A stretch of DNA of 64,000 nucleotides from Candidatus Hydrogenedentota bacterium (GTDB taxonomy: Bacteria; Hydrogenedentota; Hydrogenedentia; Hydrogenedentales; SLHB01), in the NCBI GenBank assembly GCA_045863295.1, contig BTWA01000024.1, forward strand, positions 1 to 64,000. The letters are read 5' to 3'. How positions within the stretch are numbered: the stretch's first letter is position 1; each line of letters begins with the position of its first letter. The notes below the pieces were generated by a model that was not told the origin of the DNA, did no database searches, and saw only the letters and a program-made list of their open reading frames with translations. A program made the translations under genes and the position numbers. Shown here piece by piece: positions 251 through 17,478 of the stretch.

Positions 251-2095
251 ATGCGGATTGTTTTTTCCTGCCTGTTTTTTCTTGCTGCCGTGCCTGCCTT
301 TGCGGATTCCCCATTTAGCAAGGCGGGGTATTCCGGGCCTTTGTATGATGGGCACACGGTGATTTCGCAGTACATTCCCATGGCGGACGGCGTGCGGTTG
401 GCGGCGGATGTTTGGGTGCCGGAGGGGTTGCCCAATGGGGCGAAGGCGCCGGCGGTTTTGATCCCCACGCGGTATTGGCGGGATGTGGCGATTCGGTGGC
501 CGTTCAATCATCTGCACGAGTCGCCGGAGCCGCGCGATGTGATCCGGCGGTATTTGGTGGCCCATGGGTATGCGGTGGTGTCGCTGGATGCGCGCGGGTC
601 GGGCGCTTCGTTTGGCCATGTGTTGTATCCGCGGAGTGCGCAGGAGATTGACGATTACCGGCAGGTGATCGATTGGATGGTGGCGCAGCCGTGGTGCGAT
701 GGCAACGTGGGCGCGGTGGGGCAGGCGTACGAAGGCGTGGCGGCGGAGATGATTGCGGCGCTTGATCACCCGGCGGTGAAGGCAGTGGCGTCGCAGTATG
801 GCGAATTCGATTTGTATACCGAGATTGCCTTTCCCGGCGGCATCCGGCATGAGACGTTGATCGCGGACTGGTCGCGCATCACGGGCGGCATGGCGCGCAA
901 CGAGATTCCCGAGGAAATAGGCTGGCTGGGCCAGGCCTTTGCCCTGGGCGTGAAGCCCGTGGACGGGGATGAGGACGCGTTGAAGCAGGCCGTGGCGGAT
1001 CACGCAAAGAACGGGGATCTCTACACCTTCGCAAAACAAATCACCTACCGCGACGACGTGGTGTCGTCGCCCGAGGGATCGGGATCCATCGACACCATGA
1101 GCACGCACACGATGCTGGATCGGTTGTCGGCGTCGGGCGTGCCCATTCTTTACACGACGAGCTGGTACGACGCGGGCACGGCGCAAGGCATGGCGGTGCG
1201 CTTGTTGAATCTCAAGAATCCGATCCGCGTGATCATTGGACCATGGAACAAGGGCGGCACCGAGAATTGCAGTCCTTACAAGGCGTCGGCGAAGGCCGAC
1301 GTGTCCATGGACACGCAGTTGATCGAGCTGGTGCGGTTTTTCGATTGCCACCTCAAAGGTGTGGCGAATGGAGCCATGGACGCGCCGCGGTTGATCTACT
1401 ACGTCGTGGGCGAAGAGGCGTGGGCTACTTCCAACTCATGGCCCGAAGGAACGACCGGGAGTCAGTTGTTGTATTTGGGCGAAGATCAATCGCTGTTGGG
1501 CGGGGAGCCAACGGGCAACGGAGCGGATACGTTTCATGTGAATTTTGATGCGACCACCGGCACCCATAACCGCTGGCATACCCATCTGCTGGGCGCGCCT
1601 ATCGAGTGGCCCTCCGCCGCGCAAACAGCCACCGGACGCATCGTTTACACATCGCCGCCAATGGATGCGAGCGAAGTGATCACGGGTTCGCCGGTATTGA
1701 CGGTGAATCTCGCATCCACCGTGAGTGATTTTGCAATCTTCGCGTATCTTGAGGATGTTGCGCCCGATGGCACCGCATACTACCTGACCGAAGGGCAATT
1801 ACGCACGGTACATGTAAAGACGGTTTCACCCCCGATGGAATGGCCATTTCCGTACTATCGGTCGTATTTGAGGGCCGACGGCACTGAACCGGCGGTGGGG
1901 GAGGTGACCGAGTATACGTTTGCGCTTCATCCGATTGCCGCCCGTATTGCCAAAGGCCATCGTATCCGGATTAGTCTAGCCGGCCATGATGCGGGTACGT
2001 TTGCGCGAGTGCCAGAAAGCGGCGATGTACGATGGACGGTGATGCGAAGCCCAGGACAGGCGTCGTCAATCCATTTGCCGCTCGGGTCAAGCTGA
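251..2095 (+). CDS. Secreted CocE/NonD (peptidase S15-like) alpha/beta-hydrolase homologue, catalytic Ser/His apparently substituted
   Basis: Signal peptide; YIPMADGVRLAADVWVP, TRYWR, DARGSGASFG, W.DGNVG, C-terminal PepX_C-like YLEDVAPDG..YLTEG; GAGGTGG RBS upstream. Confidence 0.85.
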   Translation: MRIVFSCLFFLAAVPAFADSPFSKAGYSGPLYDGHTVISQYIPMADGVRLAADVWVPEGLPNGAKAPAVLIPTRYWRDVAIRWPFNHLHESPEPRDVIRRYLVAHGYAVVSLDARGSGASFGHVLYPRSAQEIDDYRQVIDWMVAQPWCDGNVGAVGQAYEGVAAEMIAALDHPAVKAVASQYGEFDLYTEIAFPGGIRHETLIADWSRITGGMARNEIPEEIGWLGQAFALGVKPVDGDEDALKQAVADHAKNGDLYTFAKQITYRDDVVSSPEGSGSIDTMSTHTMLDRLSASGVPILYTTSWYDAGTAQGMAVRLLNLKNPIRVIIGPWNKGGTENCSPYKASAKADVSMDTQLIELVRFFDCHLKGVANGAMDAPRLIYYVVGEEAWATSNSWPEGTTGSQLLYLGEDQSLLGGEPTGNGADTFHVNFDATTGTHNRWHTHLLGAPIEWPSAAQTATGRIVYTSPPMDASEVITGSPVLTVNLASTVSDFAIFAYLEDVAPDGTAYYLTEGQLRTVHVKTVSPPMEWPFPYYRSYLRADGTEPAVGEVTEYTFALHPIAARIAKGHRIRISLAGHDAGTFARVPESGDVRWTVMRSPGQASSIHLPLGSS

Positions 2096-13363: not shown

Positions 13364-15043
13364 TCACTCCGCGGTAAATACAGAAAGTTCAACCGGGACA
13401 ACCGTTCCCAGCTTTGCTATCCAGGTTCCCCATGCCGCATCGTCGCCTGAAGAGCGTGCCACACTGCAGTACTCATTGGCGATCCAGAAGGTTGTGTCGT
13501 CATCGGGATCAACCACACAGGCCGAGTAGTCGCCCCAGCGTTCGGGGTTGGTCGAATTAAAGTCATCGTATTCGCCGACGCTGGTCTTATACACGACGGA
13601 TGTCTGCATTGTTCCGGCCGTTTCGCCGCTTGTGCGTGTGGCGACGCGAATATCGACAAACTGATCGCTGAACGATTGCGAGAAACAGACCGCGACATCG
13701 TCATTGGTATTGACGTTGATCGACGGCATAAATGTCCATTCGTCTGAATCACTTCCATTGATAGAACCGCTTTGCGCAACGGACGGCGCCGTGGGATTGC
13801 CGCCGTTGGTATTGATCTCAAACCACACCACTTCCGTCTTGGAGTCGGAATCTGTATCGGCGCTGAGTGTGCACCAGACACTGCCGCCGCGGTACACGGC
13901 ATTCATGACGCGCGACGACAGGGTGCTGATCGTGATGCCCGTGACGCCCGACTGAGGAGCGCCCGCGGCGATTTGAGTACCCGCCGTCCAACTCCGGGTG
14001 GTCGTGTGTGTCCCGGCAACCAAGGTGGGAGACGCGGCAGTACCGCCGATTTCCCAAAGCCGGTACAATGTCGAGCCGAACCGGTTGATCATGTAGAAAT
14101 TGCCGTTGTCCGTGGTTCCGTAGGTGTGGGCCGGTTGAACCGTAGATATGCCAGTCGTGGCGACGGCGTCCACATCGAAGTCAGTGAAGGTGTTTGTCGT
14201 TCCAATTGTGCTCTTGTCGTAAACGCGAATCTTTGTGCCTCGGCCCGTTCCACCCGAGTCGAACATATTTCCTGTGATTACAAGGCGAGTGGAGTCCGCA
14301 CCGATACCGGGGTAGTCGAACCAGGATTCATACCCGCTGGAGGGGCCAGGCCCAGCTCCGTCACCGGGGAATTCCACCAGCGTGTCCGCCACGTGGAAAT
14401 TCCAGTCCGCCCCAGTAAATCCACCGGGCGTGGCCGTTTTCGACTGGGCAATGTGCAGCCTGCTTTCGCCGCCCGAACCGCCGGAGTTCGGGAGGTTCCC
14501 GTCGAGCACCACCACAAAGAACCGGCTCGAGTGCTGGTCGAAAATAACCTTGGGATCGAACGCCCCCTTCGTCGTGGTCGTCGGTACAAACGCATCCAGA
14601 TCGATCGAACTCGCTACAGTGCTGCCTGTCTTGTCAAATATGGTGATGCCGTTATTTGTGACCTCGACGATGCGTCCGGCGGAACCGGCGCCCGTACCAA
14701 CCGCACAGTGCGTATCTGGCGGCTTTTCTTCAGAGCCATCCAGTACAGGAGTCTGGGCCTGGCCGTCGAAGCCAAGGGCGGCTGCGGGTGTAAGAGGCCC
14801 GGGAGCCGGATCGGGAAGCTCCGACGGTACTTGCGGCGCGGGCATGTCATCCATTGTCACCGTGACCGTTGCTGGCTCTGGGATGGGCCCGGTATAGCCC
14901 GAACCGCCAGATGGATATACGATATCCATGTCAACCACGACTTCTTCTGCGTCAACGGCGAGAAAGATACCCGCGCACAAAAAGAGACAAAGAATCAAGA
15001 CGGTACTTCGAGAAGATGCGGTGTGGTGTAGGAATATCTGCAT
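13364..15043 (-). CDS. Secreted beta-rich protein with C-terminal VPVELSVFTAE tail (putative sorting cargo 1)
   Basis: GAGGGG RBS; signal peptide; PPD...AVG, FDPKVIFD, DYPGIG, RWGDYS..VDP...FW..NEY motifs of an uncharacterised extracellular domain; terminal PVELS tail. Confidence 0.85.
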   Translation of the reverse strand: MQIFLHHTASSRSTVLILCLFLCAGIFLAVDAEEVVVDMDIVYPSGGSGYTGPIPEPATVTVTMDDMPAPQVPSELPDPAPGPLTPAAALGFDGQAQTPVLDGSEEKPPDTHCAVGTGAGSAGRIVEVTNNGITIFDKTGSTVASSIDLDAFVPTTTTKGAFDPKVIFDQHSSRFFVVVLDGNLPNSGGSGGESRLHIAQSKTATPGGFTGADWNFHVADTLVEFPGDGAGPGPSSGYESWFDYPGIGADSTRLVITGNMFDSGGTGRGTKIRVYDKSTIGTTNTFTDFDVDAVATTGISTVQPAHTYGTTDNGNFYMINRFGSTLYRLWEIGGTAASPTLVAGTHTTTRSWTAGTQIAAGAPQSGVTGITISTLSSRVMNAVYRGGSVWCTLSADTDSDSKTEVVWFEINTNGGNPTAPSVAQSGSINGSDSDEWTFMPSINVNTNDDVAVCFSQSFSDQFVDIRVATRTSGETAGTMQTSVVYKTSVGEYDDFNSTNPERWGDYSACVVDPDDDTTFWIANEYCSVARSSGDDAAWGTWIAKLGTVVPVELSVFTAE

Positions 15044-15114
15044 AGATAGATCCCCTCGGTTTGCGCCCAATGCCGGCGATTGACAGGTACAGCCCCGGAA
15101 TACCCCAAGCCACC

Positions 15115-16756: not shown

Positions 16757-16833
16757 CGTGGAAGACTGAAGTACAGTCTCCGTGGAAGACTGAAGTACAG
16801 TCTCCGTGGAAGACTGAAGTACAGTCTCCGTGG
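16757..16833. repeat. 24-bp perfect tandem repeat x3.2 with internal hairpin
   Basis: CGTGGAAGACTGAAGTACAGTCTC at 16757, 16781 and 16805, then CGTGG; hairpin AGACTG-aagta-CAGTCT. Confidence 0.95.
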
Positions 16834-16974: not shown

Positions 16975-17478
16975 TTACGGTTGGTGCGGTGTTTCAAACG
17001 TGCTTCGCCGAAACGAAGTGCCATGGCGAGCGATTTCAGCGGCCTCATCGTTAGTGAGAGGCTTGGTCCGACCCACGACCATTTCGGGATGCCCTGCGAT
17101 CCAAAACTGGGCGCCGTCAAGATCGACCTGCTGAAGCCGGTAGTAGTAGACGCGATTCTGTTCCACGTGGAGATCGTAGAACACGTACTCCTGAGGCGTG
17201 GTCGAATTTCCCGCGGCGGGAAGAGGGTGATCGGCATTAATGCAGACTTCGTCGGCGCCAGGTTCGTCAGCGCGATAAACAAAAAAGGCATAGGCGTTGT
17301 CTTCCGTTTCTGTGCGCCAGAACAGGCGGATACGGGGGGCGCCGGTTGCCACGGAGTTCGATCCGTCTTTCAAGGCTGGATTCACTGAACTGGTTTCTCC
17401 ACGATGAACGCAGGACGTCGCAAGAACCACGGCCATGGTTAGCACGAAGCATGGAAGTGGACGTACGCGGTAGATCAT
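16975..17478 (-). CDS. Putative lipoprotein with incomplete FN3/Ig-like beta-sandwich (lacks the first PVEL strand)
   Basis: Hydrophobic stretch plus ATS|C23 lipobox-like site; IRLFWRTETEDNAYAFFVYR, AGNSTTPQEYVFYD, YYYRLQQVDLDG; ATG overlaps the C25 stop (ATGA, 17475-17478). Confidence 0.8.
   Translation of the reverse strand: MIYRVRPLPCFVLTMAVVLATSCVHRGETSSVNPALKDGSNSVATGAPRIRLFWRTETEDNAYAFFVYRADEPGADEVCINADHPLPAAGNSTTPQEYVFYDLHVEQNRVYYYRLQQVDLDGAQFWIAGHPEMVVGRTKPLTNDEAAEIARHGTSFRRSTFETPHQP

Follow-up and report, generated by a model that had tools for sequence, protein, structure and literature searches.

A probable three-part protein-sorting system in Hydrogenedentota: tailed cargo, a strand-less lipoprotein and a PorU-like C25 peptidase

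A locus in the genome of a Candidatus Hydrogenedentota bacterium probably encodes a real and new three-part protein-sorting system, composed of secreted cargo proteins with a short C-terminal tail, a small lipoprotein whose domain lacks one β strand, and a PorU-like cysteine peptidase of family C25. The locus lies within the window, the stretch of 64,000 nucleotides that was analysed (positions 1 to 64,000 of contig BTWA01000024.1, GenBank assembly GCA_045863295.1). Sequence profiles and structure models indicate that the tail, here called the tag, is most likely the detached strand A of the domain family to which the lipoprotein, here called the catcher, itself belongs. The same data tilt us toward the view that the tag binds alongside strand B of the catcher, an arrangement that would present it to the C25 peptidase or keep it close by.

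All of these genes lie on the minus strand. The catcher open reading frame (ORF; 16975..17478) encodes 167 residues and belongs to a small conserved lipoprotein family. Its proposed translational coupling to the peptidase is evident in the DNA: the plus strand reads TCAT at 17475-17478, where the ATG of the lipoprotein overlaps the TGA of the upstream 988-residue C25 ORF (17475..20441; PF01364, E 5e-73). Cargo 1 (13364..15070) is a secreted protein of 568 residues with a hydrophobic N-terminal signal and no known family. Cargo 2 (20690..21634) is a secreted protein of 314 residues with weak NHL/β-propeller-like matches below the Pfam cut-offs. They end, as the original prediction had described, in ..VVPVELSVFTAE and ..PVPVELSIFSVE, respectively, with the tag VPVELSVFTAE at 13367..13399 and the tag VPVELSIFSVE at 20693..20725. 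As judged by reading, the N-termini of both are hydrophobic and resemble signal peptides. The 6.3-Mb genome assembly, which is 96% complete, contains two such tails in total, both at this locus.

The strand-less domain and its intact relatives

The idea of a missing strand presupposed an intact domain in which a PVEL strand shortly precedes the L.W.T..E strand. Such a domain exists. Among 1.84 billion representatives searched with HMMER, the lipoprotein has 2072 relatives at E ≤ 1e-3, of which 45 reach E ≤ 1e-10 and four reach E ≤ 1e-30. In 32 intact instances taken from the search matches the motif P-V-E-L-x-x-F lies 13-15 residues ahead of the tryptophan of L.W.T..E. The nearest relatives are small proteins of 146-230 residues with a common plan: a lipobox cysteine, an unconserved linker, the segment R-[IV]-[RK]-L-x-W-x-T-E-T-E and the remainder of the domain. 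The distant relatives are long proteins with the complete domain, often repeated in tandem and often followed by a type IX secretion system (T9SS) sorting domain of type A; examples are P0064 (..EVPVELSLFTAEAKESSIILKWRTETE..), P0047 and P0014. The intact domain is without a model in Pfam and NCBIfam, the lipoprotein does not reach the cut-off of any family in either collection, and its relatives bear only the name 'hypothetical protein' in their sources, those from a near-length search included. No intact domain combining PVEL with LxWxTxxE was found in the window genome.

A profile of 101 positions built from the 32 intact instances divides the strand-less proteins from the tailed cargo in a complementary manner. 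All 21 strand-less proteins align to it, from positions 2-17 to positions 87-93; the window lipoprotein, for which this alignment had been proposed as a check, covers positions 15-92 with an E value of 2e-25 and contains the motifs L.W.T..E, G[FY].[VI].R and YYY..Q.D of the intact-domain strands B to G. Six of seven tailed cargo proteins align solely through their extreme C-termini, from position 1 or 2 to positions 9-12, the tag of cargo 1 falling on positions 2-12 and that of cargo 2 on positions 2-11. The tag VPVELSVFTAE is identical at 10 of 11 positions to VPVELSLFTAE in the intact domain of P0064.

Structure models agree with this division. The AlphaFold2 (AF2) model of the lipoprotein, computed with an alignment of 19 sequences, is confident over residues 45-160, with a predicted local distance difference test score (pLDDT) above 95, and contains no strand ahead of B. 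Its strands span residues 48-56, 62-70, 96-102, 110-119, 124-128 and 134-137. In residues 1-44 a signal helix precedes a disordered linker, with pLDDT values of about 48-53 at residues 21-40 and below 50 at residues 29-39; the linker does not fold back. The earlier statement that this polar linker holds no PVEL-like strand is likewise upheld, since the intact-domain profile gives no alignment there and no strand is modelled before residue 48. When an intact domain (P0052) is modelled with AF2, the segment ELASFTAAA is a strand at residues 23-31 and is connected to strand B by a five-residue hairpin.

The missing element can be placed by reference to the Fn3 fold, with its sheets A-B-E and C'-C-F-G. 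Six of the seven strands are found in the lipoprotein model and strand A is missing, with match scores that are middling. Residues 44-141 resemble Fn3 domains in the VIA comparison with Z values of 7.2-7.7, also middling, and these alignments start at strand B of the template. A search of 48,161 PDB representatives with the lipoprotein model gave Fn3 matches alone, covering residues 44-141 and leaving the C-terminal extension uncovered. The best Foldseek E value for the model is 7.9e-3, with no PDB match at E ≤ 0.001, and the Pfam fn3 model is not matched by the lipoprotein. On shared Fn3 templates the intact model begins 9-13 residues earlier than the lipoprotein model. For the Ihog Fn3 domain 2ibb, residues 20..124 of the intact model lie on 464..574 (Z 11.5), whereas the lipoprotein model starts with residue 46 on 477 (Z 7.4); the corresponding template starts are 515 and 524 in 6tpu, and 1448 and 1461 in 6xay. 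At the level of sequence and model, the complementary profile mapping and the template offset thus bear out the central claim of the original prediction, that the lipoprotein lacks exactly the strand that the tails of its neighbours resemble.

The remaining anatomy of the catcher is in keeping with a lipid-anchored protein, and the strings from which it had first been described (IRLFWRTETEDNAYAFFVYR, LPAAGNSTTPQEYVFYD, YYYRLQQVDLDG and the linker ETSSVNPALKDGSNSVATGAPR) are all present in the ORF. Residues 1-23 (17410..17478) constitute a signal peptide and lipobox, with an AF2 helix at residues 11-20 and Cys23 in the sequence LATSC. As had been anticipated, the hydrophobic segment ends in ..VVLATSC, which fits what we take to be the PROSITE-type lipobox pattern, and the cysteine is nearly invariant (conserved at 90% or more) in an alignment of 19 homologues; a regular expression finds a lipobox in 18 of 23 strand-less family members. 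The polar linker, residues 24-46 (17341..17409), varies and is unconserved in both family alignments; it has no segment resembling strand A. It is followed by the Fn3-like core, strands B to G, at residues 47-137 (17068..17340; AF2 pLDDT >95) and by a family-specific C-terminal extension at residues 138-167 (16978..17067), with a modelled helix at 143-152 and strand at 155-159, which is recognized by a family motif and is a possible lid or clamp.

Tailed cargo, the C25 peptidase and their distribution

The tag consists of 10-11 residues with the consensus [VL]-P-V-E-[LIVM]-S-x-[FY]-x-x-(mostly E/D)-COOH. The tails stop exactly three residues past the aromatic residue, the point at which the hairpin between strands A and B of an intact domain would start. 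No hydrophobic helix or basic tail follows the tag. Neither the cargo proteins nor their tails match NCBIfam, and no Pfam or NCBIfam model covers the tail. The tailed proteins are mutually unrelated, with matches to S8, M6, Laminin_G_3, LTD, EEP, FG-GAP and NHL-like families, and 10 of the 21 tailed segments scanned have no family match at E ≤ 0.001.

The distribution of the three parts was surveyed in 135 Hydrogenedentota species genomes, including the window genome (G000). Strong matches to the lipoprotein (E ≤ 1e-54, ORFs of 159-175 residues) occur in six of them: G000, G087 and G104-G107. C25 peptidases are present in 59 of the 135, and the eight best matches to the window enzyme are all in the six lipoprotein genomes. 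A strict DNA pattern for PVEL..F..E followed by a stop codon gives seven matches (two in G000, four in G087 and one in G089), and the reversed control gives none. A relaxed pattern adds tails of the forms PVE[IV]SGF..[DE] and PVELSAFSTK on real ORFs in G104 (three), G105 (two), G106 (one) and G107 (three). All 15 real tails come from the six genomes that have both the lipoprotein and C25, and in 14 of them the last residue is E or D. Within genus g17, four genomes possess all three parts and two possess none. Relaxed-pattern matches outside the six genomes were rejected, many of them ending in TGG or containing a stop; among the rejected matches, 'PVELTRFGIS' (conserved in G015-G017) and those in G062, G038 and contig C33 of the window genome are not ends of ORFs of at least 100 residues. 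The strict G089 match (contig C527, PVELGQFIEE*) was regarded as a probable chance occurrence without inspection, and one relaxed match in the same genome (contig C279) was left uninspected. Because the forward patterns match repeatedly and the reversed controls give zero, in these 135 genomes and in two Sumerlaeota genomes, a chance origin of the tails is excluded.

The tag is a portable module. The orthologue of cargo 2 in G106 ends in ..VPVELSAFSTK*, and an orthologue of cargo 1 with 66% identity in G111 (contig C601, 11252-15889) ends not in the tag but in a long stretch of several domains. No catcher, tail or C25 peptidase of the system type was found in G111. That an orthologue bears other C-terminal domains is what would be expected if the tag were a sorting signal. 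The C-terminus in G111 includes Ig-like repeats and a region that by eye resembles the P-domain of proprotein convertases, so that one enzyme has had its C-terminal anchoring modules exchanged. A further kind of ending is seen in P0131, P0093, P0058 and P0089, where an intact PVEL-type domain at the very C-terminus is followed by P-[WRQ]-x-[IF]-[FY]-x-[FIL]-x-[KR] (e.g. ..TPWAIFGFRK, ..TPRLIYAIK); these endings may be another C-terminal signal on the same domain.

A functional link between the lipoprotein and C25 is strongly indicated by their co-occurrence, by their adjacency in several lineages and by one fusion of a C25 domain to the strand-less domain. The gene order C25 then lipoprotein is found in the window and on two short metagenome contigs (L098 and L101), and in G087 the order is C25, a tailed S8 protease and the lipoprotein. 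The fusion, the metagenomic protein P0009 of 888 residues, joins an N-terminal C25 to the strand-less domain, extension included, and lacks a lipobox. A word-indexed search for longer proteins recovered no C25 fusion, and it also missed the known P0009. The absence of a lipobox from the fusion favours substrate recognition for C25 over the other role suggested for the lipoprotein, that of a mere membrane tether. In genus g17 the tailed cargo genes form tandem clusters of two or three (G107, contig C36, 3635-7358; G104, contig C61, 2724-4247; G105, contig C35, 11248-13516), away from the genes for C25 and the lipoprotein.

The system recurs in a second phylum. On a contig of the class Sumerlaeia a tailed S8 protease, the lipoprotein and C25 lie side by side. 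The relaxed tail pattern gives 7 and 16 matches in two Sumerlaeota genomes, with none in the controls. Among 75 Sumerlaeota genomes, 13 have at least two real tails, with up to 17 per genome and 0-1 matches in the reversed controls. A catcher match at E ≤ 1e-15 is present in 10 of these 13, and the link between catcher and tail in this phylum is thus real, if not perfect. Beyond the two phyla, an Atlas lead points to Acidobacteriota and Pseudomonadota.

The C25 enzyme itself is best described as PorU-like rather than as a member of the PorU family, since its scores fall below the NCBIfam cut-offs: 179.2 bits against 420 for NF033707 (PorU) and 120.7 bits against 450 for NF052324 (PorU2). In an alignment with gingipain R, its His829 and Cys871 fall on His211 and Cys244, which we take to be the catalytic residues of that enzyme, and the dyad is intact. 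The N-terminus of the ORF (20320-20441) has a hydrophobic segment ending in ..VILLVAC-LSYADD; to judge from its sequence, LVAC may be either a lipobox or a signal-peptidase I site, so that the enzyme may be lipid-anchored.

The three-part system is present in organisms without a detectable T9SS among the genomes tested. In the window genome neither SprA (TIGR04189) nor a type A C-terminal domain (CTD; TIGR04183) was found; SprA was likewise not found in G087, G135 and G136, nor the type A CTD in G087, G105, G135 and G136. The positive control, a Melioribacteraceae genome (G137), yielded SprA and at least 150 CTDs. With these components not found and the control positive, the window-type C25 appears to work outside a T9SS. 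C25 peptidases are unexpectedly abundant in two T9SS-less genomes: G136, the Sumerlaeia genome of L052, has nine full-length C25 genes, and G107 has three paralogues of the system-type C25 and a single catcher. The window genome contains a second, partial C25-like match (contig C5, 28520-28831; 31.7 bits, profile positions 268-372) within a 550-residue open frame.

Between the lipoprotein gene and a Gfo/Idh/MocA-like oxidoreductase gene downstream of it lies a perfect 24-bp tandem repeat (16757-16833; 3.2 copies, unit CGTGGAAGACTGAAGTACAGTCTC), each unit of which holds the 6-bp inverted repeat AGACTG..CAGTCT.

Docking of the tag and competing explanations

Two features are specific to the catchers and bear on how the tag might be bound. 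The first is a conserved C-terminal extension, K-P-L-T..E..E-I...G..[YF]-R.E, which was absent from the first account of the lipoprotein. It occurs in 23 of 154 retrieved proteins, namely the small strand-less proteins and the one C25 fusion, and in none of the proteins with an intact domain. Its helix and short strand are modelled with pLDDT values of about 95-98 up to residue 160, and the AF2 model of the intact domain has no such extension. The second feature is an arginine five residues ahead of the tryptophan of L.W.T..E, present in 19 of 19 catchers and in 1 of 32 intact domains; in the window protein it is Arg49, at the chain break. Arginine or lysine also occupies the position three residues ahead of the tryptophan in 17 of 19 catchers, as opposed to 7 of 32 intact domains.

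Most likely, the 10-11-residue tag at the C-terminus of secreted cargo is paired with the catcher's strand B by β-strand complementation in trans. From the complementary mapping we infer a physical docking, with a geometry that would place the free C-terminus of the tag beside the catcher-specific Arg49; a contact between Arg49 and the tag carboxylate is possible in view of the sequences. Docking could present the C-terminal linker of the cargo to C25 for cleavage or transfer, and/or the lipid anchor of the catcher could hold the cargo at the membrane. A more ambitious version of this proposal, to which we would give somewhat less than even credence, describes a natural non-covalent tag and catcher in which completion of the fold, in the lipoprotein or in a catcher fused to C25, is itself the sorting signal. 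C25 would then read the assembled domain, the extension would be a lid displaced by the tag, and the whole would have branched off, independent of the T9SS, from the stalk domain of T9SS cargo and would extend across several candidate phyla.

Several observations weigh against docking of the tag to the catcher. The extension may fill or cap the slot for strand A in the model, in which case the groove would not be open, at least in the free state; a helix that turns back after strand G could place the final strand alongside G in parallel orientation, and this topology would bring the extension near the vacant A/A' position. Single matches of tails to the intact-domain profile are not significant (E 0.15-2), and the weight of that evidence lies in position and recurrence, not in individual scores. 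The three genes are unlinked in genus g17. In Sumerlaeota, no catcher was found in G140, with 17 tails, or in G154, with three, two genomes whose completeness was not established; the catcher of G139 is divergent, secreted and not a lipoprotein, and still begins R-I-T-L-R-W; and of the 62 other genomes, 19 show catcher-like matches, of which many are partial and uninspected, together with no more than one tail of the form searched for. Beyond the window genome, moreover, the tails searched for were of one fixed length. Finally, Sumerlaeota tails, read by eye, vary in their last residue (E, D, N, Q, H, K and R), so that any salt bridge to the arginine would involve the terminal carboxylate rather than a side chain.

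Of three rival explanations, the first two differ from docking to the catcher mainly in the role given to the extension. In the more credible of them, which we nevertheless judge unlikely, C25 alone would read the tail, as PorU does with T9SS cargo, and the lipoprotein would be made self-complete by its extension, serving only as an anchor, partner or regulator of C25 without binding tails. The confident modelling of the extension and its conservation across the family are consistent with this idea, as are the tails without a found catcher in G140 and G154, the intact C25 dyad, and the linkage or fusion of the lipoprotein with C25. What it leaves unexplained is that the tag copies strand A, the very strand missing from the partner, as in the near-identity of VPVELSVFTAE to P0064; that an invariant arginine has been gained exactly at the chain break; and that tag and catcher map in complementary fashion, the one on profile positions 1-12 and the other from position 13-17 onward.

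A second alternative is a protease-mediated strand exchange like that of the type V pili of Bacteroidota. In these pili (FimA/Mfa1), an Arg-specific protease of the C25 family removes an N-terminal strand and a C-terminal strand fills the groove of the partner. By analogy, C25 would cut the catcher, for example after Arg49, or remove its extension, and the cargo strand would insert to build stable, perhaps polymeric, surface assemblies. The pilus pathway shares with the present system a protease of the C25 family, a precursor that is a lipoprotein and a donor strand at the C-terminus; the invariant arginine stands just ahead of strand B, and the extension could be a removable lid. The catcher, however, appears to be a single Fn3-like domain rather than a pilin fold, has no N-terminal strand to remove, its vacant strand being absent from the gene and not cleaved off, and would receive its strands from diverse enzymes and binding proteins rather than from pilins. 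Structural searches with the catcher listed Fn3 matches only, though absence from such lists does not amount to exclusion of the pilin family. Strand exchange of this kind seems less probable still than reading of the tail by C25 alone.

That the tails have no function, being remnants of once-intact domains or coincidental matches, is highly improbable: short as the tag is, and insignificant as its single profile matches are, the 15 tails of six Hydrogenedentota genomes and those of Sumerlaeota, which number up to 17 per genome, all end three residues past the aromatic residue, they are borne by unrelated proteins, reversed-pattern controls give 0-1 matches, and they co-occur with the catcher and C25.

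Relation to known systems

The system can be counted among the C-terminal sorting signals served by a dedicated enzyme, a kind already known, and its mechanism would be new if completion of a fold proves to be the signal. Its closest counterpart is the T9SS pathway of PorU and the CTD. Both have a C25 peptidase with a His/Cys dyad (PorU is the best NCBIfam match of the window enzyme) and a C-terminal signal on many unrelated secreted enzymes, and the intact form of the catcher domain is found directly before T9SS CTDs. The differences are substantial. The tag is a strand of 10-11 residues, whereas the T9SS signal is an Ig-like CTD of about 80 residues; the genomes tested yielded neither SprA nor type A CTDs; and the PorU score, 179 bits, is far below the cut-off of 420. 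We know of no T9SS counterpart for a dedicated strand-less lipoprotein partner.

In chaperone-usher pili, an incomplete Ig-like sandwich gains the strand it lacks from a second polypeptide. In the pili that strand is the final one (G), donated by an N-terminal extension or by the chaperone, while here it is the first (A) and the donor would be the C-terminus of the cargo; moreover, the present system has no usher or chaperone. SpyTag/SpyCatcher and strand-swapped Fn3 scaffolds resemble the proposed pair in that a peptide supplies one strand of an Ig- or Fn3-like domain and the catcher supplies the rest. A strand-swapped Tencon Fn3 domain (PDB 4m6a) is among the structural matches of the lipoprotein (Z 7.1). 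Unlike these engineered pairs, the present one is natural, shows no sign of an isopeptide-forming triad and is coupled to a protease. The LPXTG/sortase, PEP-CTERM/exosortase and GlyGly-CTERM/rhombosortase systems likewise combine a short C-terminal motif on unrelated secreted proteins with a dedicated enzyme. Their signals include a transmembrane helix and a basic tail. The tag has neither, its enzyme belongs to another family, and a third component, the catcher, is added. A literature search, with poor coverage of subscription journals, found nothing on the tag or the lipoprotein.

If the proposal is correct, the tag would represent a physically new type of sorting signal, in which a detached strand completes the domain of a partner. 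The sortase, exosortase and T9SS systems, each a C-terminal signal with a dedicated enzyme, have all opened a field. The natural pair of peptide and domain, of about 11 and 115 residues, is also a candidate tool for protein engineering. For the organisms themselves, the tag offers a simple genomic marker for the secreted and surface proteome of uncultured Hydrogenedentota and Sumerlaeota. The PorU-like C25 peptidases of phyla without a T9SS, one of which is carried by 59 of the 135 Hydrogenedentota genomes, would thereby acquire a role.

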